Notes under the pieces: model-generated
Database searches by the model: none
What the model was told of the DNA's origin: nothing
What the model saw: the letters and a program-made list of their open reading frames with translations, nothing else
Shown here: positions 28,708 through 56,469 of the stretch, piece after piece
Layout of the letters: every line of letters starts with the position of its first letter
Numbering within the stretch: position 1 is the first letter of the stretch
DNA from: Stegostoma tigrinum
Taxonomy: Eukaryota
DNA length: 64,000 bases
Direction: 5' to 3'
Assembly (NCBI RefSeq): GCF_030684315.1
Contig: NC_081383.1
Span: 19,451,942 to 19,515,941, forward strand
Translations under genes and position numbers: made by a program

Positions 28708-30044
28708 GAGTCTGTTCTGCTGTTCAGTGAGATCATGACTGATCTGATAATCCGCAACATCACTTCCCTGCATTTTTTCCCTGTAATGTTTGATTCCCTT
28801 GCTATTTAAAAAAAAATCTATCTCAGGCTTGAACGGGCTTAATAACATAGCCTCGACAGCCCTCTGTGGTAAAGAATTTCACAAATTGGCCACCCTCTGC
28901 ATCTGACTGAAGGGACTTTGTCCTGGGAAGGGAGAGCCTGCTGAAAGCCATTTTCCTGCTCTTGTAGCTGACTCCCAACTTCTCTGTGACCCCCCCAAGA
29001 AACCCTTCTCACTTTTTTTACCTCAGGCCTGGGCCACTCCTCAATCCTGGGCCTCCGAAGCATGTCTTTCCAGCAGCAAAGCAACCAGCCTCTAATTGCT
29101 TAGTTGGTCTTGGTAGGCAGGTATTCCCATCCCTTTGGGTCCTGATTCTGTGGAAGACCTGCCTGTGTGACCTCCTTACTTTGTAGTTGACTTGTGACTT
29201 GGTAACCTTCTTCAGTTTAGTAATGTGGTTCTTTTGCTGACTTTGCAACTGGAGAAAACAGTGGTTCTACATTCATTGGTCTTAGAATAAACGTGAAAGT
29301 TTTCTACAAAACCCAAATGTGAAATGGCTACAATCTAAAGCTCTCCCAACATTGTTTCTTTTGTTGGGCATCAAGAGGCTGAAATCTGTTCAACAATCTC
29401 CAAATCTGAATGTCACTAAATAACTGAAGTGGGAGAACAAAGAAAAAAGCCGCTAAATATGTGCTTTGAATGCATAACAAATCAATGTAGATACACATTT
29501 TATCTTACATATAATTAAAAAAGGGATTGTACCCGTGGTGATGTTTATGGACCATCCTTTGAAAAGCAGTAACCAAAGCAAACAGTTACAAGCACCAACT
29601 AATTCAAGCCTTTATGATGTTTAAATGATGTCTTCTTGGATTGTATTTGTATGTGTTGAATCGTTTATGAATATTTATGCTTGATTATTTTTGGTCAGTA
29701 AATGGCCCTCTACAACCCAATAAACAAATATTTTGTGATGGATTTCCCTCTAGGGATGCTATACAGAAATTTGTATCTAGCCTGGGGAGGAGTCACTTAT
29801 CTGTGATTTTCTATGGGCTGATCAATCAATTGAATCAATCATTGAAACAAGCTTGATTCTGTGTGCTATTAAGTCTGTTGACTCAGGTATATATGAGCAT
29901 GGCCTGGGATGGAACAGAGTCTTAATCTACTTTTCTTGCAGCTTAGTGAAATTTATCTGTTGTTAAATCCTCAATCCAATCTGCCCTGTCCTGTATTGTA
30001 GTCAATGTTGTTATGATCCAATGATAATACAGGATAAGTCACAT

Positions 30045-30335
30045 CTAGAGGGTGTAGGTTTAAGGTGAGAGGGGAAAGATTTAAAAGGGACCTAAGGGAC
30101 AACTTTTCACACAAGTGTCATGTATGTATGGAATAAGCTGCCAGAGGAAGTGGTGGAGCATAGTACAATTGCAACATTTAAGAGGCATCTGGATGCGTAT
30201 TAGAAATAGGAAGGATTTCAGAGGAAATAGGCCAAATGCTGGCAAATGAGCCTATATTAATTCAGGTTATCTGGTTGGCATGGATGAGTTAGACAGAAGG
30301 GTGTGTTTACATGCTGTACATCTCTGACTCTATCT
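30045..30335 (+). mobile_element. CR1-type LINE extreme 3' fragment
   Basis: Colinear with 39150-39435. Confidence 0.8.
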
Positions 30336-30656
30336 CATAGTGAAACCTGGTTTTGTAAATAAAATGTTTTTTTTTCAGTTTGTTTACTGTGGTGGTCAGT
30401 TGATGCATATGTGACAATGTAGAATGATTGTAACATAGATAGTGACAAAAGAAAAATTTGGCCCTTTTCTCAGCAATATCCTTGAAACACATTCAGCTCA
30501 GTAGAGTACAAATCCTATCTAAACTTTAATTTTTCACTTAGCCAACAAGGTTATTTCTGTGACTTTTTGTCTTGCTGTCACTCCCTGAGATAGACTGACA
30601 CTGGCTACTGACTGTTCTTTACCTACTTAAACTTTAAGAAAAGTCTTTGTCTATTT

Positions 30657-30862
30657 TGTCAGATGGCACATAACACCAGGTTATAGTCCAATAGGTTTAT
30701 TTAAAATCACAAGCTTTTGAAGCACTGCTGAAGCCTGACTTCACCTGATGAAGGAGCAGACCTCCAAAAACGTGTGATTTTAAATAAACCTGGGACTATA
30801 ACCTGATGTCATGTGACTTCTGACTTTGTCCATCCCAGTCCAAAAGTGGCATCTCTGCATCA
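30657..30862. mobile_element. Fold-back hammerhead-like mini-element (family D), 9-bp TSD
   Basis: Inverted arms (cacataacaccaggttatagtcc...tttatttaaaatcac vs gtgattttaaataaa...ggactataacctgatgtcatgtg). Core CACCTGATGAAGGAGCAGACCTCCAAAA at ~30742. TSD TGTCTATTT at 30648-30656 and 30863-30871. Confidence 0.75.
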
Positions 30863-30940
30863 TGTCTATTTAAACTGCTAAAACATTTTAAAAATGCCTC
30901 TCCAGCTCTTGAGTGGATGTTCACATATAAACTGCTGGAA

Positions 30941-31265
30941 CCCAGCTAGTAACTGATGTCCATTTCAAGCCCAACGACTCCCACAACTACCCAGAATACA
31001 CCTCCTCCCACCCACCCTCCTGCAAAAATTCCATCCCCTATTCCCAATTCCTCCATCTCCGCCGCATCTGCTCCCAGGATGAGGCATTCCACTCCCGCAC
31101 ATCTCAGATGTCCAAGTTCCCCCTCTCTCCCTATTTATTCCAGTTCCCTCCCCCCCATCCCCCTCTCTGATGAAGGGTCTAGGCCCGTAACATCAGCTTT
31201 TGTGCTCCTGAGATGCTGCTTGGTCTGCTGTGTTCATCCAGCTACACACTTTGTTATGTCAGATC
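30941..31265 (+). mobile_element. Internally deleted family A Penelope copy, 13-bp TSD
   Basis: 30941-~31119 matches ~46850-47029 and ~31120-31257 matches ~48072-48206. TSD TAAACTGCTGGAA at 30928-30940 and 31266-31278. Confidence 0.9.
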
Positions 31266-31901
31266 TAAACTGCTGGAATGACTGTTTTTACCAACTGAAA
31301 TCTAATTGTGGTCCCTGGCCTGTCTTTTTGTTTGTTATAAATTTTAACTCGGTAAACATTTCATTTAGCTTTTCATTTCATTTAATCTTTTAGCTTGGGT
31401 CACATGCTTTCTTGGAAAAACTGTCCAAACTCACTGTTCAAGAGTGAATTTCTGACATGTAAAAATAAAACAACCACCTTCACAGAACTGAAAAACAAAA
31501 ATATCTTTCCTTCTATTGTGTATTATAACAATAAACAAGGAACCATTCAAAGTGTGAAGATTTTCCTGAGCTAATGCAGAATTGCCTTCTATAGTGTTCA
31601 GATTCCCTGATGTAATTACTTAGAAAGGAAAAACCACAGACATCAAATACCCAATAAATATTGTCTTTTGTTTTTGAAAATTAAATCACTTTAACAATGC
31701 TGCAATTATTATTTGTTGTCCAATCTTTTTTGTCTCATGACTGTATCGTGATTTTCAATACAAAGAATGACCAAGTGTAATTTTTATTGTTCTAGATCAC
31801 ACCTTATACTCGTGGTTCCCTCTGAGTCATTGTCAAATCTCTGCTTTATATTTAGTTCATAAGTGTGCAAAATACAATTACCCATTTCCTTTTCTAAACA
31901 G

Positions 31902-32083
31902 TGAACTGGAAAGAGTACAACCTACAACTACAATTTAAGGCAACATATGAAAGGGATTTACATCGGCTGGTAGAAGACTCAGAGATGTTTTTGTTAGTGT
32001 TTTACCTTGGACAAAGCCAAGACTATTTCTTTGGAAGTGAAGGAGGATTCAGATTTAATGAAATTCAATTGGAGGAACATCAG
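31902..32083 (+). CDS. AMH: AMH exon 2
   Basis: (V)NWKEYNLQLQFK...MFLLVFYLG...QLEEHQ, matching VTWE...L.F...LLVLY.G; phase 1-0. Confidence 0.93.
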
Positions 32084-34705
32084 GTGATCTTTTTTATTTA
32101 TTCAAATGATGAAATACAAATAAAAAAGGCCTGAAATCTTGTTTGGGTCAAAAATGGAGAAGATTCATTTTGTGCCAAAATGTATTTATTTCAGCATATT
32201 ATGATTTACCACATCTTCATATTGACCTAATTAGATTATTTGAAAATGCCTTAATAGGGCCTGTTATGAGCTTTCTATAAACAAAAGTAAAATGGCCACA
32301 TTCCGCAAATCACTACTGACCCTATTTAAATCTGAATCCTTTTAGTCTCTCACTGTTATTTGAGTATTTAGATCAATTACTCCCACTCTATCTTCTCCCT
32401 ATCCACTGTAACATTAGAAAGCAGCTGCCTTGGATTTATTTTTAGCTCATATCTAGGCCACTAGGCAGCCTTTGTTCGGTAGTGTTTTCCCTCATGAATT
32501 TATTTTTAAAACTAATTCCGTTCATTTGCACTTGATCCAAATTTGATTACCCTTTTGTTTTTGGGGTAATGAATTTTCAATTCATAAGGGCTTTATTATA
32601 CTAAGCTGTGAAGCTGAAACTTTGAACAGAAATAAACCATTGTGTCTGAAACCTGCGTTAATTTTCAGTTGAGAAAGAGAGACAGAGAAAAAAAAAGAGA
32701 GCAAGTATGGACCCACATTTTTTTCCAGTTATTTTGTGTCACTTTTTTCTATTTTATTTCGAGTTGATCATTTTAGAGCTTCATCGTAGTTCAATCATAA
32801 ATATCAGAACAAGATTACAGTTTGATGCAGAAAATAATATGAACTGTTTGTTATCTGTCAATTGAATAGATACATGGGTATCATTGAAAGTATATTTTGA
32901 ACTTAAATTATGTCTCTTTTGTTTCACTTTGTATTTAATATCTGTGAATGATGTAGCCAAATAGCCCAGTGTGATTCACTCCTGTACTTGCCAGTAATTG
33001 ACAGGCATTAATACAGGTCATTAAGATGTTTATGGAGGCTTGCCACCTTAGACTCATGCTAGAAATGGAGTGAAGTTCCTCATGCTATAATATCGATTAT
33101 CTCTATTTAATGGAGTGAGATGCCTATGGCCCTTTGGTAACTATGGTTATTACTTATTGACACGCTGTTATCCTCCTGAAAGAGAGGCAAACCATGTGAT
33201 AGCTAATGTCAGCTGAATGTAACAGCGGTAGACATTTACAGCAAAATATTTAAAACGAATATTGTGAAATGGAAATATATGTCTTGGATTGCTGTATTTG
33301 GAATTACGCAGCATATTTTTCTTCTTTCTGCAATGCATTTTCTACATTTTACAGTTATACTATATAAGTGAATTGGTCTTTGAGGAACTCATTGTTAGGA
33401 CTCCATAGTGGAAAGATGGAAGTTCTAAAAATTCTTTGTCGGAAGCTGGTGAAAGACAGACTTATTTTTGTTTTTAAGAAGTCTAAGAAATCTAACCAAC
33501 CCAGACAAATCTGATTTAACTGAAGTTAGTGGACCTCACCACTTACCAGTTTGATAAGTAATGGAGACAACTTGTCTCTTGTTTCTTGAGGCTTGAAGCT
33601 AGTGTAATCGTGGTGTAAATGGTGGAATTTCTGGGTTATTGCTTTTTGGTACTTGAATTCTGTCATTGAGATCAATTATATGTTCCACTGGAATCTAGTG
33701 TATTTTTGAGAATGGGTATAAATTTAGCATAGGTGGTACATGCCCTAAACTCTGGTGCTCTACATTATCTTTCCAAACAAAATAATCTTCGAATTTTTTC
33801 TTTATTGCATATTTGGGAAAACATAGGTACACAGATATATCAGTTAATAAATTATCCTTTTCTGTCAGGAGAACTAAACTTGTTCAAAATTAAAACCTTG
33901 CATCCTCCCTCTTTCTCTTGTGTGAGCCAAAGGTGAATGGCCAAATATGATTGTGCAAATATGATTGAGAAAAGAAAGCATTAATTTGAGCAGAAAATTT
34001 CAGGTACAATAAAAATATAATTTGAGAAAATGAATTTCCACCTTAAATTATAATGTGCTGAAATTTACGCTGTATATAATTTTCCATTTATACAACAATT
34101 CTAATTTTTCCATGTAAGCTGTCTTTTCAGCCATGTCACTTGTTAGACCTAGTGATTGGCTGATTTTGTACTTCTTATCCTTTTACTTGACACTTTTAGA
34201 AGGTTGTAATGGCAGAAATAACAGAATACATCCTTGAATCATACATTTGATGTTGTAAAACCACCGACAGCTTCCATGAGTACACCACAGCATTCAATTG
34301 TGTTCACAGTTGTGGCACAACTTTATTTCCTGTTAGAGTTTTATAAGTTCTCAGATTTGTTATCTTAGTGATTGTGACTTGAACATTGTGAATGCGAGTC
34401 ATGTTGCGTATCTTTCATATTAAATACATAGACCATATTTAATACGAAATATATTTTATCTTCAAATCACTTATAGCTCACAATCTCCACTATCACTGGA
34501 GAAACCCTGAGCAAGGATCAACATGAATAAGATAGGTTCATTTATTTATTGTGTCTACTATCTTTAACTCCTTTGATACTTTTGGTTCTGGCATAGCTTC
34601 TTATATCTGCACAAAGTAAATACTATTATTTGAAGTAGTGAAGGACAGGGAGGATATTTGGTGGAATTTAACTGTCAAGTCATAACATTGAATTTTTCTG
34701 TTTAG

Positions 34706-34826
34706 ACTGTTTGCTTTAATGAAGAGACAAAGTATGTTATCCTCAGTATTCAAGGAATCCCTGGAAAGTGCACAGATGGGCATCTGTGCATTGATGTGTC
34801 TTTAAAAATCAAGCATCTTTCTAATG
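34706..34826 (+). CDS. AMH: AMH exon 3
   Basis: TVCFNEETKYVILSIQGIPGKCTDGHLCIDVSLKIKHLSN matches AMH (S/T)(L/V)C.S.DT.Y..L; tttag acceptor and gtgagt donor; phase 0-1. Confidence 0.93.
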
Positions 34827-35924
34827 GTGAGTCATTTGCTACTACCTCTTAATTGTTTTTTCTTCCTACAGAAATCATAAAACTTGCAAAACATATTCAG
34901 TTGTAAAACCATGTCTGACATCATTAAGGAACATTTCCAGCTCCACCTGAGACTCCTTATTGATTATATCCACTTTCCTCGCCTATGGCTGCCCTAGATC
35001 GGCTGTTGCATTGATGTCGTTTTTATGTAGTTTCTAACTGTATATTCATTTGCATCTTCAAAATGTCACCTGCCTCTATCGCTATCTCAGCTCCACCCTT
35101 CTGCTGCAGAAGTTAACATTTGTGGTTTTATCACTCTGAGGTGTAAGTGTTCCAGAGCTCTGCTGGCTGACTTCCCATTCTCTGTCATTTGTAAACTTCA
35201 GCTCAACCAATACTCTACTCCCATTCAAACCCAAATCATCCCTTAGCTCTATCTTTGGTCTGATGACCTCTATGGCTTTCGGATGGCTCAATTAAAATTT
35301 AAGCCCTAGCACTTAAATTCTATCATGGCTTCATCCTCATTATCTCTGTGATCTCCTCCATCCCTTTGTTCAATCCAGGACTTTCACATGCACTTTGAAA
35401 TTTATGCATTTGGATTAATAGGGATCTCAAGTGTTATCAGCAGCTGTGGTGTGCATGGAGCTAGACTGAAACATTTGTACTTGGTATTTATAGATTTTGT
35501 TCTGGATATTAATAGAGTTTGTTCTTGGTATTGATAGAAAATGAGCTGATGTATAATGTTGTTTTTGGTGTGTTTTGAAATAAATCCATCTGGCAGGCAA
35601 ATTTCTTTGAAAAGAAATGAAGCACTTATCAGTGTTTGTGCTCAGTGATCAGAGAGCCTTGTGCTTCCATAATTTGAAATGATATTTTTAGACAAAACAA
35701 TAGATATGCAGCAAGTTTATTTACCAGATGTATGCTCCAGGGCACCTAATCAAGCAAGGGTGAATTGACACTTTGGCAAACATCACACTTAATTTCCCAC
35801 TTTAATAGGTGGGATTTATAGTGGGTGGCCAACCTATTCGCAGGTGCCTTCATCCTACCTGTTGAAGTTGGACTGATATCCCCAGTGTTTCTCTGCACAT
35901 GGTAAAATCTGGGTGCAGGAGCCA

Positions 35925-37125
35925 TATAAATGTACAAAACAGAAGCAGAAGTAGACCTTGAGCCATTCAATAAAATCATGATAGATCTGTTTGTGTTTTG
36001 AATTCCACGTTCCCATCTATCACCTAAACCCTTGATTCTCCATCCCCTGCCTCTATTCACTCAAGTCTTAAAATTTACTTGATGACCCAGCCTCCACCAA
36101 CTTCTGAGGCAGAGAGTTACAAAGTCACATATCCTCTTGAGAGAGAAAAAAATCCCCTCACCTCTGTCCTGAAAGGGCAAACCCTAACTTTAATGTAACA
36201 TCTGATACTTGTAGACTGATTAACAAGAGAAAATATCCTTCCCTCATCTACCTTGTCAAGATTAGCATCCCTTAGCCTTCTTGATTATGTATTGAACCTA
36301 CATACTTTCATGTTGTGACTCTTACAAAAGAGCATCCTCTACATATTCGAATTCAGAAATCACTCCATGCTGTTTGTTTCCATTCACCCTGACAAAGTGA
36401 ACAACCTCACATTTTTCCACATTATTTACCATCTGTAAGAATTTTGCCCACACATTCAACCTATCTGTAATCCATCTGCACATCTTTACATCTTCTTCAC
36501 AACATGCTTTCGTACTTATGTTGGTATTGTCTGTGAATTTAGCTACCAAGCCTTCATTCCTCTCAACTAAATCATTGATATAAATTGTAAGAAGTTGAGG
36601 GCCCAGCACAACCCCCTCATCATATCCTGCCAATCAGGCAAACATTCATTTACGCATTCTCTCTGTTTTCTACCAGCCAGCCACTCTTCTATTTAAGCTA
36701 ATATGTTACCCGCTGCACATGTGCCATTATTTTCCATAATAACATTTTGTTGGACACCTTTTCAAATGCCTTCTGGAAAGTTGCCTGTTGAAGGTCTACA
36801 GGCTACCTTGATCCTAAGCACATGTTATTCCATCAAATACATTGGTTAAACATGATTCCATCTTATCATGCATGTTTTACCTTGCATGTTTCTAAGTGTG
36901 CAACTACAATCTCTTTAATGATCGATTGTAACACCTTCCCCATGATAGATATCAAGCTAACTGGCCTATATTTTCCTGTCTTCTGCCTTCTTCCTTCTTG
37001 AACAGAGGGGTTATATTTGTTACTTGCCAATCTGATGCAACTTTTCCTGAATCTAGGGAATTTAGGAAAATTAACACCAATGCATCAAACTCATGAGCAG
37101 TTTCTTTTAAGATCTTTTAACGCAA
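35925..37125 (-). mobile_element. CR1-type LINE fragment (RT)
   Basis: Minus-strand ORF VLGPQLLTIYINDL..VAKFTDNT..NVEKCEVVHF; also FQKAFEKV and YRP.SL.S.MGKVL. Confidence 0.85.
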
Positions 37126-38559
37126 ACATGCATGATTTCTGCTTGTTTACTTTGTTCCACGTTATGGCTACTGCTAGGTGCCTGTAGACCATACCTTCTC
37201 GTGACTTATTTTTCCCCTATTCCTCAGCTAATTCTATATCCTGATCTTCTGAAACAAGGTCCTCTCTAACTATTGTTTAATGAACTGATCTACAATTCCC
37301 TGCTCTCCTTTTCTCACTTGTTTTAAGTAGATGAGTGGGAAATACAATTTTTCAGTCAAAAAATACAGCTCTTGAAATGAGGGAACTTTGCAATGTACTT
37401 TCAACTGTGAGATGTAAACCATTTTCTTGGGGGCTTTTACTCCATATTTCCATTATTTTCTTCAGGACTGTTAAATTACTTGAATTAATTATGGTGAGTT
37501 CTTGTCCCTGATATAACATAAGTTTCCTACATCTTTTCTTCTTGACTGTAAATACGAAGTAATGTGAAGTAATTATTAACAAATGTGCCATTTCCTTGTT
37601 TTGATTTATAATTATTTTCATTCTTCAGAGACACAGATTAATTAGACCATGCTCTCTATTTGAATATAATTGTAAATATTTGTATTGGTTATGAAAGCTG
37701 TTGCAAGTTTCTTTTCATATTCATTTCTGTAGCTCTTACTAATGATTTTATCATCCTTTACTCTTTCTCATTCACCAGGATCTGTGCTAGTTTTTCCATT
37801 CCATTAAACTTTTCCCTTAATTTTATGCTTTTACCTCTTTAGTCTTCCATGCCTATTTCTTTTGGCAAGTTAAACTGGTCCCATATCACATTAAATTCTT
37901 TTGTGAATACCTGTCACTGATATATTGGTTTACCCATTGACAAATGGTCCCAGGTTACTGTATGCAGCCTGTTTTAGCTCTTTGAAATCTGACTGTCCAA
38001 AATCTAAAAGTACCTCTTTTGTGCTTCTCCCTTTTAAACAGAATAGTGAATTTCATCACACATTGATTGCCATAAGGATAATTATTCATACACCATAGTG
38101 TTTGCTAAGTAATTCTAGTTCATTCATCATCATATTTTCCTTCACTTAGTTTCCTTAGGCTGTCTTTTAAGGCTGGGAAATGTCTGCTCCTGTTAATTTT
38201 TTCCCTAGTGTCTCTTTCTCCAGGGCATTCTTCTGCGATTCTTCCAGTTGACTACTGTAATTTCAGTGGAAGGTTGGCTAAAAACCTAAAGTTTCTTTGT
38301 TTTGGGGTTTCTAGCAAAATTACATGATGATTCAGAAGAAAGTCTGAAGACATTTCCAATACATATCTTTGCTACTGTGAAAATGAACCAAGATCACAGT
38401 AGTCCAAGTGAAGCCTTACCTTGGCTTTAAAACCAATTGAGGAAACTTACACTTTAAGAAGCCAATTAGCAGTTAACTTCAAATCAGAGATGCTACAAGA
38501 TTTGTGCTTGACAAAAGCCCATGAGTGGATGGGTGGCATATATTATGCATTTTTATCTA

Positions 38560-39435
38560 CATAAAATGGATATGAATAATGGAGGTATGGTTAGTAAGTT
38601 TGCAGATGACACCAAAATTGGTTTTGTAGCGGACAGTGAAGAAGTTGATCAGATGGGCCAATGGGCTGAGGTGTGGCAGATGTAGTTCAGTTTGGATAAA
38701 TGTGAAGAGTTGCAGGACTTATATTCTTAATAGAAGGGTGCTAGGGAGTGTTGCTGAACAGAGAGACCTTGGGGTACACGTTCATAGTCCCTTGAAGGTG
38801 GAGTCACTGGTAGATAGGCTGGTAAAGAAAGTGTTTGTTATGCTTGCCTTTATTGGTCAGTGCATTGAGTATAGAATTTGGGAGGTCGTGTTGTGACTGT
38901 ACGAGATATTGGTTAGGCCACTTTTGGAATACTGCCTTCAATTCTGGTCTCTCTGCTACAGGGAAAGGTGTAATCAAACTTGAAAGGTTTCAGAAAAGAT
39001 CAACAAGGATGTTGCCAGGTTTGGAGGGTTTGATCTAAAGCTGAATAGGCTGGGGCTATTATCTCTAGAGTGTAGGGGTGACCTTATAGATTATGAGGGG
39101 CATGGATAGGGTGAATAGCGAAGGTCCTTTTCCCAGAGTAGGGAGGTCCATAGGACATAGGTTTAAGATGAGAGGGGAAAGATTTAAAAAGGATTGAAAG
39201 GGGCAACGTTTTCACGCAGAGGTTGGCACCTGAATGCAATGAGCTGCCAGAGGAAGTGGAGGAGGTGGGTACAATTACGACATTTAAAAGGCCAACGGAT
39301 TGATACATGAATAGGAAGGGTTCGGGGGTATGGGTTAAATGCTGGCAAATGGGACTAGATTAATTTAGGATATATGGTTGGTATGAACAAGATGGACTGA
39401 AGGGTCCGTTTCCATGCTGCATAGCTCTATGACTC
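38560..39435 (+). mobile_element. CR1-type LINE 3' fragment
   Basis: VSKFADDTKIG, EQRDLGVHVH, LERFQKR.TRMLPGL. Confidence 0.88.
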
Positions 39436-39889
39436 ATATATATGAAAAAGCTGACAAAAAACTGAAAAATTAATCTACTCATTGTAAATTGAAGAAGAGC
39501 TGGAACTTTAACTCCTTTAGCCCTATTTGGCTATTTGCAACACCCAAGATCATTTATTCAGTGAAAAGTGCTTCATTATTTGCACCAGACAGATTCTTTA
39601 GGAGGGGTCATGCTATCAATCATATTTGGTGCTGGCTTTTTTCTGTGGGTCAGAAAGTATCTGGTGAGTAGCGGAGAGCCACATAGTGAGGGGAAAGCCC
39701 GTGTACTCTGCTAATCTCAGCCAGTGAGGTGGTAGGTGCACTAAAACTATATTTAGTACAACATAAGATAATTTATATTTAATAAAACAAGTCACATAAA
39801 TTGGATTGCTCTCCATTTGCGACCAACTGACCACTTATTGAGGAGGAATATTATTAAGCTGTAAATATAATAATTAAGCTCTGATTTCT

Positions 39890-41000
39890 ATGACAACAAC
39901 TTATATTTATATAGCACCTTTAATGTAATGAAGCATTCAAAAGCCCTTCACGTGAGTGTTATAAAGCACCAAACTATATAAGGTAATATGAGGACAGAAG
40001 ACCAAAAGCATGGTCAGAGATGTAAGTTTTTAGTAAATATCTTAAAAGGAGAAAGCAGAGCTTTTTTTAAAAAAAAAGATATGTTTTTCAGGGGGTGTGG
40101 GCATCAATGGCAAGGCCAGTGTTTGTTGCCCATTGCTAACTGCCCTTAAACTAATTGGCTTTCAGAGGGCAGTTAAGAGACAACCACATTACTGTGGGTC
40201 TGGAATCATGTATAGGCCAGACCAGGTAAGGATGGCAGATTTCCTTCCCTATAGAGCATTAGTCAACCAGATGGGTTTTTATGGCAATTAATGATACTTG
40301 TCATAGTCACTGGGACTAGCTTTCCATTCTGGCTTTTATTAATTAAATTTAAATCCCACCATTCCCCATGAGAAATGAAGATGTTTAGGGAGGGAGCTCC
40401 ATGTTTTGAACCTTGTTACCTGAAGGCACAGCAGCCGGTGGGGGAGAGATTAAAATCAGGGATGCTCAAAAAGCCAAAATTGGATGAGTGTAGCCTTTTT
40501 GGGGGTTTTGGAGCGTAAGGAAATTACAGAGGCTGGGAGGGATTAAGCTGTCAAGAAATCTGTGAACTAGGATAAGAATTTTAAAATCAAATGTTGCTGA
40601 ACCAGAAGCAAAACAATCCACTGAGCTCGGGGTGATGGCCAAATGAAATTTGAAGGGAATAAGGGCAAGGGCAGTAGAATCTCAGATCATTTCACATTTA
40701 TAAGGGTAGAATATACGAAACCAGCCTGGAGTGCTTGGGATTGTCATGTCTAGAGTTAACAAAGGCATGGATGAGGGTTTCAGGAGTAGATGAGTTGAGG
40801 CAGGGGCTGACATGTAACTATCAGTTGGACTGCCTGTTTTTGATGCACTGATATGTGGATGGGAATTTATCCCAGGGTGAAATATAACAGCAAGGACGTG
40901 AGCAGGCCTGGTTCTGTCTTTGACTGTTCAAGGATGAAATCAGTACATAGGGACCACAGATCATAGGGACTGTAGACAACAGCTACCATAACAATGTTCT
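39890..41000 (-). mobile_element. Decayed L2-like LINE 3' region with a nested fragment
   Basis: Plus strand begins acaacttatatttatatagcacctttaatgtaa (an L2/Deu-type tail reversed); decayed IHAFV.SR.D.. motif on the minus strand near 40740-40780. Confidence 0.55.
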
Positions 41001-41775
41001 GTATGTGATAAACATGACATAATTACAAGTGACTGAAGCTGATTTTTTAAAAAATAATTTCAATCATTGGCATCTATGTATCCCCAGTTTGTCTTCTCTC
41101 TCATCATGAGGGGTCAAAATCCCACTGATGTTATCTTTTGCTTCACCCTAGTAAATCCGCAATTCTTACGTGAACTTGAACTGCAAACAACATTGAAAAA
41201 CGTAAAAGCTGAGTTTGATCCTGTTTTTGCCTGATGTTCATAAATGTTTTATTGATTGAGCAGTGATGGGAAATGGATTGGGTCAGATGGCTTACTTGAT
41301 TTTTCTAAGCTGAACAATGTGTGACAAATTGGAGTATTCCAACTGCCGCAACAACGAGCTTGAACCTTAAGTCAAATGCAAGGACTCTGCCCCTAGATAA
41401 TTGATGCCCCTGATCTTCATTGGGAGAGCTCTAATCAGCCCATGAGTGATCACGATTAGACAGATTGACTGCTCGGTGATAACAGCACTGGCCTCTGGGA
41501 AGAGCTCCCAGAAGTCGGGAATGTATCTGACACCAACTTCTATGAATTTCCTCTTGGTCCCACTACAAAAAGCTTGCCCTTCCCCAACCCCAGTGTCAAA
41601 GCTTTTCATCATCTGTCTCTGAAACTGCTTTTCGCAATGACTGTTGCCCATGTTGTTAGCTACGGGTTCAGTTTAGGCTGCTTCAAACAACACCTTGCTG
41701 ATGAAGAAGTGTGCTCCTTCATAAGTATTCATGTGATATTCATATGGATTTGTTTTCATTTAATGATGTAAACAG

Positions 41776-41947
41776 GTGTACGAATGAAGAAAGAGGAGAT
41801 CCAGCGGTTGCTGTTTGGCTTTGATGAAAAACGTTTCACCAGGATGACTCCAGCCTTGTTCTTTCGCTTCAAAGAGTTGAAGAACAAACTAATGCAGCCA
41901 TCATGCAGCAACGTACAGGACTCACTGCCTTCACCTCCCATATACAA
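41776..41947 (+). CDS. AMH: AMH exon 4
   Basis: (G)VRMKKEEIQRLLFGFDEKRFTRMTPALFF..., containing the diagnostic AMH motif LQ.LLFG.D...FTRMTPAL; phase 1-2. Confidence 0.96.
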
Positions 41948-42479
41948 GTAAGCACTGCTGAAAAACGCAGGACAGTGAGGCAGTATATCAATGGTTATGT
42001 TAGAGATATTTATTGAAAAGTAATCATTTTGAGGCATATATACCCTTCCAATGATTATTGTTGTTAAAACGTCTAGTGGGAAGATAAAGCTGAGATTGGC
42101 ATAACCATAGTGTTAGATATTTTTAATCAACCTGTTCAGATGTGTTATCACACATCTCTGGAGCAGATGGGACTTGAACCTGACCCTTTTGGCTTAGGTG
42201 AGAACATCTGTGCTATTCCTGGGAGTAATATTAACTGTTGATGGTCGTTGGAGAAAATAGATACTTAAAACATATGACAATTCTTAAATAGAATTACATA
42301 TGCTATATAAATATGTTTTTTTAAAAAATCATGAACTTTATCAAGTTCTGGAGTGTAAGTATAATTTTGTTTTCCTTGAAAAGAGAGAAAAAAGCACCAA
42401 ATAGCAGTGAGACGTACGTGAACTGAACTGTTAGTGCGATAAACATATCAATAAGGGAAATCACACTATCAAAATACCA

Positions 42480-42805
42480 GGGTAGCACAGTAGCTCAGTG
42501 GTCAGTACTGCTGCGTCATAGTGCCAGGGACCTGGGTTTGATTCTACCTCTGTTTGGAGTTTGCACATTCTCCTTGTGTCTGCGTGGGCTTCCGTTGGAT
42601 GCTCCAGTTTCCTCCCACAGCCCGAAGATGTACAGGTTAGGCTGATTGACCGTTTAAATTGCCCACAGCGTCCAGGAGATATGTAGGGTAGGTGGGTTAC
42701 CATGGGGAAATGCAGGGTTAAGTGATTAGGTGGGATGCTTTTCAGAGGGTTAGTGGGCCTCAATGAGCCAAAAGGCTTGCCTCCACATTGTGGGGATTCT
42801 GTATT
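42480..42805 (+). mobile_element. V-SINE (HE1-like, tRNA-derived)
   Basis: A-box tagctcagtgg, B-box gggtttgattc, and V-domain ggagtttgcacattctcc..tgtgtctgcgtggg..tgctccagtttcctcccaca. Confidence 0.88.
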
Positions 42806-43364
42806 GTTGTGGTAAATCACCGGTGCGCAAATATGGGATTGTAATGCCTGATCTGTAAAAAGTGCTAAAATTGGATGCATAAAACTCTTTTCCATCTAAG
42901 TAATTGGCTTTGAGAAAGCTCACAAAGAGTTGATACTTTCCACTATCAAAATATAATTGTTGAAACATTTATGTACCCAAACCTATTTAATATCAGACAA
43001 GATCAAACTTCCTCAGAGCAACGTTGTGAATTAAAACTCTATTGCAGACTTTCAGCCAGAGGTAGTTGCCCGAGTATGATTAATCCAATGCTTGTTAGGA
43101 GTATAAAAATCTCATGGCACTATTTGGAAAAGAGCAGATAGAACTCCTGGTGGCTTAAGCTGCCAATCATCTCCTGATGAAGACCTGCAAAACATAGACT
43201 AGCTATTCATCCAATGTCTGTTTATAAATATTTGTATCGCTGCATATTAAACAGTGCATCAAAATTATTTTTTGAAATGTTAAGGTTTAACATTAAGATT
43301 AGTGCATGTATTTCGTTAGCCATGTCTATATGTGGCCTTTCATTACCTTAGAGATACTTGATCA

Positions 43365-43910
43365 GATTTGGTATAGAATACAAGAGCAGCAATAAGGCTG
43401 TGGTCAGATCACACTTGGAAAATTGTGAGTAGTTTTGGGCCCCCTATCTAAAGAAAGGTGTGCTGGCCTTTTAGGGTGTCCAGAGGAGGTTTACAAGAAT
43501 GACCCAGGAGATGAATGGCTAGTTATATGAGAAGCAGTTGAGGACTCTGGGTCTGTGTTTGAAGGCATTTAGAACGATGAGGGGTGATGTGATTGTAACT
43601 TACAGAATACAGAGAAGACATGAAAAAGATGTTCCCATCAGTAGGAGAAACTTGGACCTGAGGGCACAGTCTTGGGGTGAAGAGATGACCCATTAGTACT
43701 GAGATGAGAGAATTTCTTCAGCCAGAGGATAGTGAATTTGTGGAACACGTTGCTGCAGAAGGCTGGTGGTGCCAAGTCATTGAGTATATTTAAGATAGAT
43801 AGGTTCTTGATCAGTCAGGGACCAAGGGTTATGAGGAGAAGGCAGGAGGATTGAATACTGGAACAGACTCAATAGCCGGCCTAATTCTACTCCTACATCT
43901 TATGATGTTA
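43365..43910 (+). mobile_element. CR1-type LINE 3' fragment
   Basis: VRSHLE.C..FWAPYLKK.VLA..GVQRRFTRM.PG and a CR1 tail. Confidence 0.85.
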
Positions 43911-44907
43911 TTAGATCTATTAATCTAAAAAAAATTGCTGAAGAGTGATAGAAAAATGCAGTTTAGTCCACATTTGTCAATTGATGTAAATTCAATACAA
44001 TTTTGTAACTACCAGCAAATCATTCATTTATACAGGCAATTTTCAACAAATATTCCTTTTGTAAAAGTATGTCTGAAATTCATCAAACTGAAGAATATTA
44101 GTGCGTTTTTTCATTTTCTCCACTTCTAGAGGCCCCTATAAGCAATCAGTTTGGTTATAGATTACATGTGTTACCTGAGCTAAGAGCAGATAATGCAAGA
44201 ACTATTCAACAATTTAAGTAACATCAGTGGGATGGGCAAGGGTTAATTCTTAAGATCAATTACCCTTCAGTAGAATGGGTTACCTCACTCACTCACTGTC
44301 CATTAACCCTTTTCCATTTTAACATTGTGTAATGGTGGCACATTATATCAAAGGTGTACATAGTTACACATTTGTGAAATTAACAAGTGTAACCCCTGCT
44401 CCAGCTCTTAGACCAGCAATAAGAACAGGTTATTTAATTTCACAGAATATATGTGAGCCTAATATTTACCTGCAGTAAACAGCTGATCCATTTATGCAGT
44501 TCGGAAAATTAGCTCCTTCTGAAAAATATGCAGCAATTAGACCTGATAAAGTAGGATCTGTGAATTGATGTACCTGGTTACTTTAAAGAAAAAGCCTTTG
44601 CAGCAAAGTCAAAGTGGTGGCTATAATAACTCTAATAGGATACAGCAATGTTGTGGTAAAAGTACATAAAAAGTTTAATTTTAACGGAGTGATACAGTCA
44701 GAGACAGACTGGAGAATATGAGACTCGTAGAGAAAAAAACACGAGGCAATAAAGTTAAATGGGGATAGAGTGAATTTCAGAGTGTGAGACAACCAGAAGC
44801 AGTTTTTTAAAGCTACCTTTGTTTATGAGTAATATGAAAGAGATTCATTAGTATGCTTATTAATGTGATTATGAAATACAGCCTAATCCAGTCATTCCTA
44901 CTTTCAG

Positions 44908-45865
44908 AGAAGCTGCTAAAGCAGTTAAAAGGAGAGGAAGTGATTATTTGGAAACATTGGATTCTTCAGTTAACATGCCATCCTCAACTCATGGGTCACC
45001 ACGTGAATTTCTACGACATCTCAGTAGATTTTTGAACATGGTCTTAGGTTACTCCACTGACCACAATTCCAGACCTGTGCTTCATCTTGACAAGCAAACC
45101 ATTGAGAGTCTTCCCCACCAATCAATGAATATATCAAATGCCTATGTCTTAGAGCTGTTGGTGCAGTCAGATGAGCCCTTGATATTTTTATTGCCAGAGA
45201 ATGCAGCAAACTTTTTGACACAAATAAGAGAAAATGAAAATGCTGGGCAAACTGAGGAAAAGATGCAGCAACTTCTCATCACTAAACTTCAGAACACAAT
45301 CAGAAGTGTTTTAGAAATTCCCATTTTCCAGAATGAGAAGGTTTTGAAACAGCTCATTCACCTACTGAATGAATGTAATTATCCCTTACCCCTGCCCCAG
45401 TTCCCTCAGGTCAGTATCTCACCACAAGATAGCCTAAAGAAACAAAACAACACACAAAAAACATACTATACATTTTTGTTGCTGAAGACATTACAAACAG
45501 TGAAGACATTTTGGGAAAAGAGACAAAAGCTCTTTCGGCAAAACAGGAGTGCAACCAACCGGTCAATGTGCAAACTGGAGGAGCTCAGTATTGACTTTGA
45601 TCGTTTATCTTACGATTGGATTTTGGTTCCAAAATTGTACAATATACACAATTGTGTTGGATCTTGTAGAATTCCATTAATGGGAAACGTATCTAATCAT
45701 GTTGTCTTACTTATTAAAATGCAGGAGCAGGGCCTTCCCACAAAACGAGAGCCATGTTGTGTCCCAGTTGAATATTCTGAGCTACTCCTGGCCGTTGTCA
45801 GTGAACAAAGCAGCATGATTACTGTGTATAAGAACATGGTGGCAGAAGAATGTAAGTGTAGATGA
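44908..45865 (+). CDS. AMH: AMH exon 5 (prodomain end, furin site, TGF-beta mature domain)
   Basis: cag acceptor at 44905-44907, in phase with exon 4. Contains IESLPHQSMNIS..LE.LV.SDEPL, LLLKTLQ.V..FW, the RQNR|S cleavage site and a 7-Cys knot (C, CVGSC, PCCVP, ECKCR). Total CDS 2055 nt = 684 aa. Confidence 0.97.
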
Positions 45866-46130
45866 CCCAGGCATTTTGGCACATTTTATGATATTGACTG
45901 AAAATACTGACTTGCTTGTGAACAGCTCTCATGGCACGTTCTCTCAGTCAAGTTGAGTATTTTCTTACAGTTCTCCATATTTTAATTCGGGAACCCAGAA
46001 GATATTTTCAGTCAATTGAGTTAGGACCACAGTGATAATGGGAACTGCAGATGCTGGAGAATCCAAGATAATAAAATGTGAGGCTGGATGAACACAGCAG
46101 GCCAAGCAGCATCTCAGGAGCACAAAAGCT

Positions 46131-46158
46131 GACGTTTCGGGCCTGGACCCTTCATCAG
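46131..46158 (-). ncRNA. Minimal hammerhead ribozyme motif (antisense arm)
   Basis: Minus strand CTGATGA-AGGGTCCAGGCCC-GAAACGTC. Confidence 0.75.
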
Positions 46159-46686
46159 AGAGGGGGATGGGGTGAGGGTTCTGGAATAAATAGGGAGAGA
46201 GGAGGAGGCGGACCGAAGATGGAGAGAAAAGAAGATAGGTGGAGAGGAGAGTATAGGTGGGGAGGTAGGGAGGGGATAGGTCAGTCCAGGGAAGACGGAC
46301 AGGTCAAGGAGGTGGGATGAGGTTAGTAGGTAGGAGATGGACGTGCGGCTTGGAGTGGGAGGAAGGGATGGGTGAGAGGAAGAACAGGTTAGGGAGGCAG
46401 AGACAGGTTGGACTGGTTTTGGGATGCAGTGGGTGGAGGGGAAGAGCTGGGCTGGTTGTGTGGTGCAGTGGGGGGAGGGGACGAATTGGGCTGGTTTTGG
46501 GATGCGGTGGGGGAAGCGGAGATTTTGAAGCTGGTGAAGTCCACATTGATACCATTGGGCGGCAGGATTCCAAAGCAGAATATGAGTTGCTGTTCCTGCA
46601 ACCTTCGGGTGGCATCATTGTGGCACTGCAGGAGGCCCATGATGGACATGTCATCTAAAGAATGTGAGGGGGAGTGGAAATGGTTT

Positions 46687-47775
46687 CCTCTGTTACGTTG
46701 ATGACTGTATCGGCGCCGCCTCTTGCTCCCCAGAGGAGCTCGAACAGTTCATCCACTTCACCAACACCTTCCACCCCGACCTTCAGTTCACCTGGGCCAT
46801 CTCCAGCACATCCCTCACCTTCCTGGACCTCTCAGTCTCCATCTCAGGCAACCAGCTTGTAAGGGATGTCCATTTCAAGCCCACCGACTCCCACAGCTAC
46901 CTAGAATACACCTCCTCCCACCCACCCTCCTGCAAAAATTCCATCCCCTATTCCCAATTCCTCCACCTCCGCCGCACCTGCTCCCACGATGAGGCATTCC
47001 ACTCCCGCACATCCCAGATGTCCAAGTTCTTCAAGGACCGCAACTTGCCCCCCACAGTGGTCGAGAATGCCCTTGACCACGTCTCCCGCATTTCCCGCAA
47101 CACATCCCTCACACCCCGCCCCCACCACAACCGCCCAAAGAGGATCCCCCTCGTTCTCACACACCACCCCACCAACCTCCGGATACAACGCATCATCCTC
47201 CAACACTTCCGCCATCTACAATCCGACCCCACCACCAAGACATTTTTCCATCCCCACCCTTGTCTGCTTTCCGGACAGACCACTCTCTCCGTGACTCCCT
47301 TGTTCGCTCCACACTGCCCTCCAACCCCACCACACCCGGCACCTTCCCCTGCAACCGCAGGAAATGCTACACTTGCCCCCACACCTCCTCCCTCATCCCT
47401 ATCCCAGGCCCCAAGATGACTTTCCATATTAAGCAGAGGTTCACCTGCACATCTGCCAATGTGGTATACTGCATCCATTGTACCCGGTGTGGCTTCCTCT
47501 ACATTGGGGAAACCAAGCGGAGGCTTGGGGACCGCTTTGCAGAACACCTCCGCTCGGTTCGCAATAAACAACTGCACCTCCCAGTCGCAAACCATTTCTA
47601 CTCCCCCTCACATTCTTTAGATGACATGTCCAACATGGGCCTCCTGCAGTGCCACAATGATGCCACCCGAAGGTTGCAGGAACAGCAACTCATATTCCGC
47701 TTGGGAACCCTGCAGCCCAATGGTATCAATGTGGACTTCCACGAGCTTCAAAATCTCCCCTTCCCCCACCGCATC
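46687..47775 (+). pseudogene. Penelope RT-C-terminus/GIY-YIG ORF remnant, frameshifted near 47240 and 47740
   Basis: Homology passes from the 46664 ORF frame to the 47260 ORF frame; the N-terminal half of RT is missing. Confidence 0.88.
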
Positions 47776-48116
47776 CCAAAACCAGCCCAGTTCGTCCCCT
47801 CCCCCCACTGCACCACACAACCAGCCCAGCTCTTCCCCTCCACCCACTGCATCCCAAAACCAGTCCAACCTGTCTCTGCCTCCCTAACCTGTTCTTCCTC
47901 TCACCCATCCCTTCCTCCCACTCCAAGCCGCACCTCCATCTCCTACCTACTAACCTCATCCCACCTCCTTGACCTGTCCGTCTTCTCTGGACTAACCTAT
48001 CCCCTCCCTACCTCCCCACCTATACTCTCCTCTCCACCTATCTTCTTTTCTCTCCATCTTCGGTCCGCCTCCCCCTCTCTCCCTATTTATTCCAGAACCC
48101 TCACCCATCCCTCTCT

Positions 48117-48144
48117 CTGATGAAGGGTCTAGGCCCGAAACGTC
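48117..48144 (+). ncRNA. Minimal hammerhead ribozyme motif (sense arm)
   Basis: CTGATGA-AGGGTCTAGGCCC-GAAACGTC, predicted cut after 48144; helix I is short (CT/AG). Confidence 0.75.
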
Positions 48145-48427
48145 AGCTTTTGTGCTCCTGAGATGCTGCTGGGCCTGCTGTGTTCATCCAGCCTCACATT
48201 TTATTATCTTGAGTTAGGATCACAATTTGCTAATCAGTTTCCAGAATAGATCAGAAACGAAAGATATAAACATTTCACACCCTGCAGCCCAATTAATGCA
48301 AATTGCTGACACTAGTTTTAAAATTTTGACTTCTGTAATACTTAAAACTTTCCTTGGAAATTAATTGTTTTAGGTGAAAAATAAAACAGTGGGGATGAAA
48401 TAAGATATTCATTATCAAGTTAACAGA

Positions 48428-48531
48428 GTGCTCAGTTCCGAAGCAGGGTCACCAGGTCGAAATGTTAATTTTGATCTTTTCTTCGTAGATGCTGCCAGAT
48501 CTGCTGAGCTTTTCCAGCAACTTCTCTTTTT
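48428..48531 (+). mobile_element. Decayed family B mini-element, 9-bp TSD
   Basis: GTTAACAGA at 48419-48427 and 48532-48540; cagttccgaagcagggtcaccaggtcgaaatgttaa. Confidence 0.75.
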
Positions 48532-51500
48532 GTTAACAGAATAATTTGGACCCCTTAAAGTTGAATACAAGCCAATGGGATTCAATCTTTTCATCCTATT
48601 TTCAGAAACATATCAAAATAAATTGAACGTAGCAGCTGGAAACTCTCAATTCTCTGGTACATTATTAAAGACCTGAGTGTATGCATATTTAACTATCCTT
48701 AGGTCGTACACAATAGCCCTTTCAAGAATACCACCCTCTAGCATAATGGACTGGATTTTGATTGCTGAGTTGGATAGCTCGAATTGGGAAATTTTCTAAT
48801 TTGCAAAACCGACCTAATTAATGGAGCACCCGATACATACAATTTTCACCCAGGTGGGAGGAGTTTTGGGGATTGTGAGGATGGTCCACCCATGAGATTG
48901 AGTTGTGCCCACCCACCACTGGAAGCAGATGTTAGGCAACCATGGGGGAGTTGAACACTGAAGCAGACTATTTAGAATGACCACCTCAATTCTTCAGGGT
49001 ATTGTTCTGGTTATTTTAGAAGTTGTTTGCCCTTTCAGCCCTGAGCTTATTCACTCTTTGACTCCCCTAACTCGCCCATCATGGCCCCCCACACTGCACA
49101 TGCCAACTTGTGCCCTACACCCAACTCCCATTACCTCATTCAATCCATGTCATCTTCAGGATCAATTAACCAGTGCCGATTAATGAGCAGACTTCAGGAA
49201 ATGAAGTTGAGAATCTTTTTAACAATCCAATACTGTTTGTATTAATCACTTATAAAAATAACAAGCTTCTTTCCAGTGGCCTTCTATTGACTTTTAATAG
49301 ACTCTTAAACTGTCATCAAAACTATGAATTGTAGCTTTTGAAACTCCAACAAGCATTCATCGGGACAGTTGAAGCAGTTGGGTAGGGTTTTGTTTTGAAC
49401 TCTTGCTGACAGCTGGAACCTATTTTTACTGTTTAATGAGCAAGTAATTTCAAAACCAGAGTATCTTGCTATTTGTGTTAATCTTATTCATGTTTAAAGA
49501 GTGTTTACATACACTCTCTAAATTCATGCCACTCTGTGGCATAAAACTCTTGGACCAGCCAAAATTGGATTTGTGTCTATGCAGCACTAAATTTGGGAAT
49601 CCTACCTGGGCAAATCATGCCCCATCCTCTTCCTCCTACTGGAAAACATTGGATCCGTTAGAAATCAAAGTGGTTGGGTGGGGTACAGGTTGGGGTGAGG
49701 GGAGGGGAGACAGAGAGTTTTCACATGCCCTGTATTTTTGAGTCTATTGAAATCCTGTAACCCCATATGTTGAGTGCTTTTTTGGAACTCTTCAATAGCA
49801 TGACGAGAACTTTGCTTGTCACTGTGGTGTATTGTACATCAAAATGAAGAAAGGAAATTTCTATACACTTGTACTGAGATTAGCGGATTCTTTCTGTACA
49901 GATGAAGCTACAGTGGACATGGCCTTGCATGTATTCCATGAAGAAATAACATGATATCAGCCCCCATTTATTGGTAAATGTATAACTAAACATAAATGTA
50001 AACAAGTTATTTACCTGTATATTGTGTGACCTTTATGAAATATATTGATTGATATGCATGTTCTGTGGTATTCTTAAAGGATTTTCTTTAAATTAAGCAT
50101 TCAATTTTAATGGCTTTATTTTTCAATAACATGTTTTATTTTAATGTTCTCGTATATATGAATATGCCTTTGATTTTCATGGTTTGCTGTTAATTTTGGA
50201 GAAAGTTTGCATGAGATGGAATTATGGCAGTAAATCCTGCGATGCATTTAAGGGAAGACATCAAGCAGAAGCTCGGTGCTTTCCATTAAGACTGAAAAGT
50301 TCATCTGCTCTTTCATGCTTCCTAATAATTGTTTCATCACTCGAGATGATAATAGTTTAAAGCGAGGACAGGTTTCTTTTCGAGGATTCTATGAGAAAAA
50401 AAGAATCACTGCTATTTTTCTAATTAATCTGGAAAGTCACCAGTTCTTTGTTATTGTGTCTTTGTTCTATATTTTACATTATTTTGCAAAGGGTAACAAT
50501 AAAACTTTTCTTTCATGTGTCATTGGTCTGTTGAGTCATTTGAAGTTGAATAAACAAAATTACTCCTGCCGAATATGATAAATAATTAATAAGCAAACTC
50601 TTATCTTAACGTTGACGTAAACATTCTGCTATTGCTTGTAACTACTCCTGCCAGGAAATCAGCCTTGCATCATCCTTACGTGTCCATTGTAACTCATCTT
50701 CAAAGTATCATACTTGTGATTGAACCAGGCCTTGGCTGACCCTTTTTTGTCTTCCTTTCATTCTATAACCTAGAAGGGATCTCTGTAGCTTTTCCTCATT
50801 GATCAAACAGCTGAAATACTGACATGTTCTTTTCTGGATTCACTTTTTAAGGGTCATATTTGCTCTAGCAATTTCTGGTACTTTTTTTTGGACTTTGCAC
50901 ATAAAGCATATTACATTCTCCTTATTGTTACATTAAAACCTATGACTTTTAGTATGTGAAATCATTGCCTTAACTTTTCATCAGTCCATTATGCTGTGCC
51001 ATAACACATTTGAAAATAAGTTGCATATTTTCAGTAAGATTCAGCAGTTACTTTGAAGTCAAGATTGTAATTTCAAGCCAGTTAATAATAGGAGTTTATA
51101 TTAGGAATCTAGAGCATGACTCAGGTTGTCATGATGCAATACCCCTGGTGATGAGACTTTTCCCACTGTGAAAATATATGGTTGTGATGGTAAGTTGCAA
51201 CCAGAATGATACATTTCACATGAATACATGGACAGAAACCTTAACAAGAAGTATGTCAAGAACATAAGTATATATTCGCTTCAGTAATTCTCATCCCTTT
51301 CCATTGTTAAAGTTCTGCTCTGACAATTGGCTCAAATTGGAATTGGCCTAAATGGAATTAATTCTCACCTGCTTAGATTTGACTACTTTAGAATCCACGC
51401 CATTCAGATCAATTCACATTCTGGGAATGATGAGGTTACTGCAACATAGCACCATCAAAAAGAAAGCAGAAATCATTATAGGCACATGGAATTACTCAAT

Positions 51501-56430: not shown

Positions 56431-56469
56431 CTGGTGAGAAAAAAAAAATGCTCTGAAGAAATTGTGTTT

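Follow-up and report, generated by a model that had tools for sequence, protein, structure and literature searches.

The window analysed here is a stretch of 64,000 nucleotides (nt) from the genome of Stegostoma tigrinum, the zebra shark (NCBI RefSeq assembly GCF_030684315.1, contig NC_081383.1, positions 19,451,942 to 19,515,941 of the forward strand), which contains the AMH gene and, beginning 166 nt past its stop codon (TGA, 45863-45865), an insertion of a Penelope-like element (PLE) that spans 46032-48208 (Table 1). The reading frame that ends at this stop codon is unbroken and was identified as AMH by its AMH_N prodomain (Pfam, E=2.6e-30), its C-terminal TGF_beta domain (E=1.1e-19) and its closest homologues, which are shark AMH proteins. 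The spliced model is identical to the S. tigrinum RefSeq AMH over that entire record (P0018, 595/595 residues), 97.8% identical to whale shark AMH and 92.7-93.4% identical to two bamboo shark AMHs, while a metagenome scan for AMH relatives returned 172 candidate stretches, 0 of which were confirmed. The S. tigrinum RefSeq protein begins at residue 90 of our 684-residue model, the additional residues being encoded at 25533-25800; the upstream in-frame ATG is intact and is the start used by the whale shark and bamboo shark records, and the shorter RefSeq N-terminus is probably an annotation truncation.

The presence of a Penelope insertion just behind AMH, and its inverted arms of some 620 bp, had been proposed in a preliminary description of this DNA, and both hold: we identified reverse transcriptase (RT) and GIY-YIG endonuclease (EN) motifs, the inverted arms, a 32-nt tail and a target-site duplication (TSD), whose two 16-bp copies are identical at 15/16 positions. 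Aligned to each other (46064-46686 vs 47589-48211), the arms extend over 623 bp with 97.1% identity, 16 substitutions and 2 indels. The forward open reading frame (ORF) preserves the PLE-type (Y/F)xDD motif and lacks the N-terminal half of RT; frame changes occur near 47227-47248 and near 47740, so that, with the 5' truncation, there is no intact single ORF as in an autonomous copy. Homologues of this protein are numerous (69 of 353 candidates at E<=1e-20, many with PF00078 and with GIY-YIG-bearing proteins among them), the best being a Stegostoma model (91%) and a Rhincodon model (80%). In tblastn, the endonuclease region matches P0082, a protein carrying PF01541, and the one direct Pfam match to GIY-YIG, a weak one of E=0.0019 and 18.9 bits, stays under the cut-off of 22.6. 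The copy behind AMH is a relic of a PLE family, not an active element. We considered P0024 as a genomic copy with the same inversion junction, and rejected it on finding that its N-terminus is ordinary RT sequence. The RT-thumb sequence of this PLE is also contained in two ray RefSeq models that bear the names of host genes, P0028 (chitinase domain protein 1) and P0034 (divergent kinase domain 1C), where it represents either exonization or an annotation error; on PLE exonization, nothing specific was found among the literature matches listed.

Table 1. Positions, in window coordinates, of the AMH gene, of the parts of the Penelope-like insertion and of the candidate RNA-processing signals behind AMH.
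Feature	Position	Strand	Remarks
AMH gene	25533..45865	+	five coding exons, 684 aa, intact; tblastn, exon model, Pfam
AMH coding exons	25533-26154, 31902-32083, 34706-34826, 41776-41947, 44908-45865	+	exon model
Host proximal 3' untranslated region (UTR)	45866..46031	+	166 nt, no poly(A) hexamer, no UGUA
Left TSD	46016..46031	.	16 bp; first 3 bp may instead be element end
PLE 32-nt tail	46032..46063	-	only on inverted copy; same end on copy 28583-28704
Left arm: inverted 5'-truncated copy, endonuclease coding end and pseudo-long terminal repeat (pLTR)	46064..46686	-	
Arm-borne AATAAA 1	46070..46075	+	9% U downstream (third lowest of 126); upstream sequence lacks UGUA
Arm-borne AATAAA 2	46185..46190	+	purine-rich downstream, 7% U; rank 1 lowest of 126
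Forward 5'-truncated PLE ORF	46685..47740	+	starts at RT motif YVDD, then thumb, linker finger, GIY-YIG and pLTR
RT active-site motif YVDD	46694-46705	+	
Linker finger CX4CxxC	47350-47376	+	sequence CNRRKCYTC
GIY-YIG endonuclease motif VVY..YIG	47461-47508	+	with internal CxxC
Third AATAAA	47563..47568	+	loop just before right arm, element coding strand; average downstream U, rank 66 of 126
Right arm: endonuclease coding end and pLTR, without tail	47589..48208	+	611/623 bases paired to left arm in minimum free energy (MFE) fold
Candidate 3' splice site	47948..48095	+	TACTAAC branch-point match 47948-47954, long pyrimidine tract, first AG 48094-48095
Minimal type-I hammerhead core	48117..48144	+	4-5-bp helix II, palindromic ACGU replacing helix III, 2-bp helix I
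Right TSD	48209..48224	.	15/16 identical to left copy
Probable distal AMH 3' UTR	48225..50570	+	candidate ends after AATAAA 48380, 48617, ATTAAA 48664, AATAAA 50498, 50549; end inferred
Older degenerate hammerhead-like repeat, broken core	48435..48534	+	76% over 46 nt to young pLTR; inside probable AMH UTR
Contigs of a relative on unique host DNA	48886-49007, 48919-49180, 49288-49473, 49771-49955	unstranded	runs X1/X2, depth 2.3-3.6

This architecture, with the inverted pLTR arrangement, the tail and the TSD, is the one described for endonuclease-containing PLEs, in which an inverted 5'-truncated copy, a tail of 30-40 nt at one end and a TSD are usual (PMC8557442, PMC3846280) and in which the tail has been attributed to RT starting at two internal sites (PMC11167929). 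In fact, the succession of RT and GIY-YIG, the CX2-5CxxC finger, the head-to-head copy, the tail, the TSD and a hammerhead in the pLTR are all shared with the insertions reported in these sources, and the copy behind AMH, which is frameshifted and whose truncation reaches the RT active site, differs only by its location. A finger of this kind between RT and EN was described as defining the Neptune and Nematis clades (PMC8557442), and the CX4CxxC finger observed here points to one of them, an assignment made from the finger. The structure seems to be ordinary for this genome, since three further copies of the family, 91-94% alike over the hammerhead end, are present in the window, one of them a miniature of the same design. 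Two of the three carry TSDs of 12-15 bp, and all three lack the GAAACGUC hammerhead box. The miniature (3406-3570) joins an inverted tail to a forward hammerhead end within a perfect 15-bp TSD. The two others lie in AMH intron 1 in AMH sense orientation (28583-28704 and 30929-31278), and the second, flanked by a 12-bp TSD, has an RT fragment fused directly to the pLTR end and retains a shortened splice acceptor at 31143. At the tail, summed read depth reaches about four orders of magnitude above single copy in one bin, a figure that is not a copy number.

Neither AATAAA nor ATTAAA occurs between the AMH stop codon and the insertion, as the preliminary description had pointed out, and the same is true for all 18 poly(A) hexamer variants that we tested. 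Chance would account for this absence over 166 host bases: AATAAA/ATTAAA are likewise missing from 81% of 6384 window tiles of 168 nt, and all 18 variants from 1617 of 6384 tiles of 166 nt. Nevertheless, since none of the variants and no UGUA motif is present, termination before the insertion is less likely. The positions given in that description for AATAAA in the arm (46070, 46185) and in the host DNA (48380) were reproduced, and to these we add AATAAA at 47563, 48617, 50498 and 50549 and ATTAAA at 48664. Three canonical hexamers (46070, 46185 and 47563) therefore lie within the transposable element (TE), and those of the arm are family sequence, being found on both arms and, for the second, also in an intron copy. 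When all 126 AATAAA of the window, on both strands, were ranked by downstream U content, the two arm-borne hexamers fell at the lowest end (Table 1); they have no U/GU-rich downstream element (7-9% U) and no UGUA upstream. U- and GU-rich downstream elements were described as core parts of human poly(A) sites, and the same source states that poly(A) site structure diverges in fish (PMC2553571), so that the mammalian rule may not fully hold here. A GU-rich tract does follow the host AATAAA at 50498, close to the end of an AU-rich region (49900-50560) that had also been noticed before and that, with 69% A+T, falls in the top 1% of window tiles. We also considered this AU-rich tract as the 3' UTR of a convergent ORF (55720-56493), which is unlikely because the ORF's own signals (55512-55596) lie about 5 kb away.

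Sequencing runs were used to ask how far AMH transcripts may extend. Seven runs were listed for 44912-46030, with no RNA run on record among them, and four runs of one study contained all words of the interval; in three probable RNA runs, from two other organisms, the shares of AMH exon-5 words were 0.15, 0.09 and 0.06, values that say nothing on expression. Reads were placed from four of the seven runs (X1-X4), on 48185-52000 only, and the contig pieces discussed are those among the matches listed. X1 and X2, probable RNA runs of one close relative from one study (shares 0.15 and 0.09), gave the four contigs of Table 1, whose combined cover of host DNA amounts to 666 distinct bases, all within 48886-49955. 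In empty-site numbering, these contigs reach 828-1897 nt beyond the AMH stop, past the signals at 48380, 48617 and 48664. X1 and X2 cover 13% and 25% of 48540-50500, respectively, vs 1.6-1.7% expected for random DNA contigs, an expectation that assumes a genome of 3.71 Gb, a stand-in size taken from PMC10620051. For X3, the third probable RNA run, no unique-sequence piece was among those listed, and one bin had a depth of 0.65. The stretches left uncovered by X1-X3 (48185-48440, 48569-48824, 49977-50616 and 50873-52000) were not used as evidence; between 50900 and 52000 zero pieces were found vs about 2 expected at the observed rate, a weak difference. Since contigs of the relative lie past the site and the host bases ahead of the insertion are free of poly(A) hexamers, the insertion is probably situated inside a long AMH 3' UTR. 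The ancestral 3' UTR would probably have measured about 2.4-2.5 kb, ending after the signal at 50498 or 50549, and, if this holds, the insertion would lengthen it to about 4.7 kb. Within this probable UTR lies the older hammerhead-like repeat of Table 1, a family also found at about 2200-2317, 13761-13861 and 62006-62212. Each of the four placed runs, those of the relatives included, gave a very large number of contigs matching this family.

The arms allow an estimate of the age of the insertion. Over 622 aligned bases they show 16 substitutions (2.6%), and host DNA differs from the four contigs of the relative above, organism A, by 43 in 755 aligned bases (5.7%), which gives an arm/host ratio of 0.45; if the arms were identical at insertion, the event would be at most about half as old as the split from organism A. 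This figure is an upper bound, since 7/16 of the arm changes are transversions and some may stem from reverse transcription. Arm divergence, the TSD mismatch and the frameshifts together suggest that the insertion is old and probably fixed. A contig of the DNA run X4 crosses the right junction without differences (48188-48506), with just 21 element letters before the TSD (<31); as X4 may be the assembly's own source, we did not take this contig as independent proof of fixation.

In an RNA that reads through the insertion, the two arms would be expected to pair. In the MFE fold of 45866-48420 the pairing of the right arm with the left one includes the entire hammerhead, and the arm-arm duplex has a predicted energy of -579.7 kcal/mol, vs -52.7 and -35.3 kcal/mol for the single strands. 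No sign of selection for pairing was seen among the arm substitutions, only 5/16 of which keep a G-U pair. The hammerhead itself is situated where the preliminary description had located it, in sense orientation at 48117-48144, with an antisense copy at 46158 on the minus strand. Its core is intact on both arms and contains the catalytic boxes, helix II and a palindromic minimal helix III. The conserved core, the bulge before helix II, the G-C closing pair, the palindromic 15.2-16.2 positions without a helix III loop and the existence of an opposite-strand pair are shared with minimal hammerheads described in metazoan PLEs (PMC4209133). The AMH-side hammerhead has a helix I of just 2 bp, like the D. 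virilis variant, and faces a full antisense partner within the 3' region of a host gene. Scanning 44000-52000 with Rfam gave no match up to E=1, and a metagenome scan for the motif returned 0 matches. There is no second nearby sense copy that could form a dimeric active fold, the sole nearby intact copy being antisense, and the other plus-strand motif matches (10214 and 62114) fall outside the AMH 3' region. That at 10214-10246, within the gene span of SF3A2, has a different, longer helix II region. As a monomer, the predicted inactive hairpin (-11.4 kcal/mol) is favoured over the active fold (-3.6 kcal/mol). Activity of the hammerhead is thus not supported: the motif is single, with a helix I of 2 bp and a monomer that prefers an inactive fold, and is fully paired in the predicted read-through fold. 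Buried in the duplex as it would be, it is most likely inert here. In the literature, single minimal hammerheads, including that of S. mansoni, were reported to show no in vitro cleavage (PMC4209133), and the hammerhead ribozyme (HHR) of an anole PLE needed an element protein, no RNA-seq reads ending at its cleavage site (PMC11167929).

We also noticed a strong-looking candidate splice acceptor in the right arm, absent from the preliminary description, which sits in AMH orientation 22 nt ahead of the hammerhead. Compared with all 3959 AGs, that at 48095 ranks 2 for its AG-free zone (168 nt) and 3 for its pyrimidine fraction (0.84). The intron of Drosophila Penelope was described as ending at helix I (PMC4209133), and the acceptor found here similarly precedes the hammerhead. 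By a crude count, six sites in the stretch from exon 5 to the left arm resemble donors and fit the consensus no less closely than the true AMH donors. The last AMH codons (45849-45857) include a donor-like GTAAGT, at a distance of 14 nt from the stop codon's end, and a further good donor match lies at 45409. In simulated splicing to 48095, donor 45851 gives an AMH of 680 aa without the terminal CKCR, donor 45409 gives a form of 554 aa without the mature domain, and the left-arm donors 46279, 46321 and 46387 create an intron within the 3' UTR, at 414-522 nt beyond the stop. Introns that far past the stop codon should trigger nonsense-mediated decay (NMD). The acceptor is nevertheless probably masked by the inverted arm, because its branch point, tract and AG all lie within the predicted duplex.

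On balance, we consider it probable that a single PLE insertion of Neptune or Nematis type is read through by AMH transcription, forms a hairpin in the mRNA and persists as a tolerated passenger. The element inserted once, 166 nt behind the AMH stop, and left the usual head-to-head product within a 16-bp duplication: the inverted truncated copy with its tail adjoins a forward copy beginning at the RT active site. Between the two outcomes put forward previously, early termination at an element-borne signal or read-through with a hairpin, the latter is likelier, since the hexamers of the element lack U/GU-rich downstream elements and those of the arm are among the poorest in downstream U (lowest and third lowest of 126). 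In the zebra shark, most transcripts of AMH would then probably carry an intramolecular duplex of about 620 bp, roughly twice the length of an Alu element. This predicted duplex would hide both the hammerhead and the splice acceptor, so that neither should act, and would be expected to be edited by ADAR, as inverted pairs of short interspersed elements (SINEs) are; ADAR-type editing across metazoans was reported to hit mainly young repeats, in a study whose main text does not mention sharks (PMC9989829). The closest known parallel seems to be that of inverted Alu pairs (IRAlus) in mammalian 3' UTRs, with which it would share a long intramolecular 3'-UTR duplex, expected editing and possibly lowered expression (PMC5080714, PMC3458544). 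It differs in that the arms are neither Alu nor SINE, both come from one insertion event and pair over 97% of their length, and their presence in the mRNA is inferred. Inverted Alus reduce mRNA or translation in mammalian cells (PMC5080714, PMC3458544), and by analogy a modest effect on AMH output is possible; the net effect would likely be either none or a modest reduction in mRNA or translation. The insertion looks like a tolerated old passenger and not like a co-opted switch.

Several points weigh against this explanation. The contigs of the relative are unstranded and shallow (2.3-3.6), come from one study and are RNA only by a guess, and none of those listed joins exon 5, which are real limits; moreover, the interval 48540-50500, for which coverage was calculated, was picked after the data had been seen. 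The rules on poly(A) cis-elements are mammalian, with divergence in fish stated in PMC2553571. The arm hexamers would stay single-stranded for about 2 kb of transcription before their partner arm is made, and could be used first. Finally, where 3' UTRs contain inverted SINE pairs, mammalian cells show reduced expression (PMC5080714, PMC3458544), so that neutrality is not assured.

Dominant termination at a signal donated by the element, with cleavage mostly after 46070, 46185 or 47563, would leave a short UTR without duplex, hammerhead and distal AU-rich tract, use of 47563 cutting right at the start of the right arm. These hexamers are canonical and the first met after the AMH stop, and sites of this origin are common: about 8% of human poly(A) sites are TE-derived (PMC2553571), dog SINEs truncate UTRs (PMC11699766), and fish rules may differ. 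With such cases the element shares the introduction of AATAAA into a 3' UTR upstream of host sites, and differs in that its arm hexamers derive from the antisense strand and are devoid of U/GU-rich downstream elements, which leaves them as candidates only. We regard this account as rather unlikely, given the poor downstream U of 46070 and 46185 and the lack of UGUA before them, the position of 47563 in the element's coding strand, which an active family would have to transcribe through, and the observation that non-conserved TE-associated sites are used less often than conserved ones (PMC2553571). Another account uses a non-canonical signal and places the end of the AMH mRNA before 46031, which would leave the insertion out of the mature mRNA and make the contigs read-through, other RNA or DNA. 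It would agree with their shallow, unstranded nature and with their lack of a link to exon 5; with no hexamer or UGUA in the 166 nt and with X1/X2 coverage about tenfold above the random-DNA expectation, it is distinctly unlikely.

A trap for splicing, in which acceptor 48095 captures a latent donor and yields the 680-aa or 554-aa AMH or an NMD-substrate 3'-UTR intron, could draw on the high ranks of the acceptor and its TACTAAC match, on six donors equal to the real ones by a crude match count, and on the known PLE pLTR introns that end beside a hammerhead (PMC4209133). We hold it to be very unlikely, since the donors were scored crudely, the left arm pairs with branch point, tract and AG alike in a duplex of -579.7 kcal/mol, and the S. 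tigrinum RefSeq AMH keeps its normal C-terminus. Cleavage of the AMH mRNA by the hammerhead at 48144, aided by PLE protein or by pairing with a PLE in trans and removing the poly(A) tail, is hardly credible: the core is intact on both arms, unlike in the three other copies that lack the GAAACGUC box, and the anole PLE HHR is protein-assisted (PMC11167929), but the motif is a single copy with a 2-bp helix I, its inactive monomer fold is favoured by about 8 kcal/mol, it is completely paired to the antisense arm, and published minimal HHRs are inactive as monomers (PMC4209133).

Elsewhere in the window, SF3A2 lies directly upstream of AMH (8035-24020), and three candidate poly(A) signals there (22175, 23478 and 24014) precede the start of AMH by 1.5-3.4 kb. 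SF3A2-AMH read-through occurs in mammals. The AMH protein cluster includes SF3A2 proteins and a bamboo shark model of 975 aa (P0014), perhaps a fused model. On the minus strand and convergent with AMH, a K/E-rich open frame of 257 codons (55720-56493; candidate signals 55512-55596) gave no Pfam match and no match in the protein atlas; from synteny, JSRP1 would be a guess at its identity.

We found no published account of this insertion, and the supplements of shark genome papers may contain repeat or UTR annotation. Literature on amh with TE insertion, UTR or polyadenylation yielded nothing related; the zebra shark genome literature gave no mention of Penelope among the matches listed, and that on PLE hammerheads in sharks nothing beyond one review, subscription papers being mostly outside the coverage. 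Amh was reported as not found on elasmobranch X chromosomes; the same source did not detect it in the gonadal primordia of bamboo shark and describes it as male-biased in gonads of juveniles (10.1101/2025.03.13.642935). In view of these published expression data any effect of the insertion would concern gonad maintenance, not sex determination, and a sex-linked polymorphism of the insertion would be improbable. We give little credence to a lineage-specific post-transcriptional switch of AMH, in which the duplex would compete with the acceptor and the poly(A) signals and a sizeable, regulated share of transcripts would encode AMH without its terminal cysteines or without the entire mature domain, or would be NMD-bound. 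If it existed, zebra sharks would have a gonadal hormone tuned by one palindromic Penelope insertion, a rare instance, in a cartilaginous fish, of reproductive hormone isoforms shaped by a PLE. As a tolerated passenger, the insertion is one of many Penelope-family copies, of standard form, that happens to lie behind a well-known gene. Its value would then be modest: a ready-made test of whether head-to-head PLEs place IRAlu-like duplexes in shark mRNAs, and of whether ribozyme and splice site are kept silent by the inverted arm of the very element that carries them.

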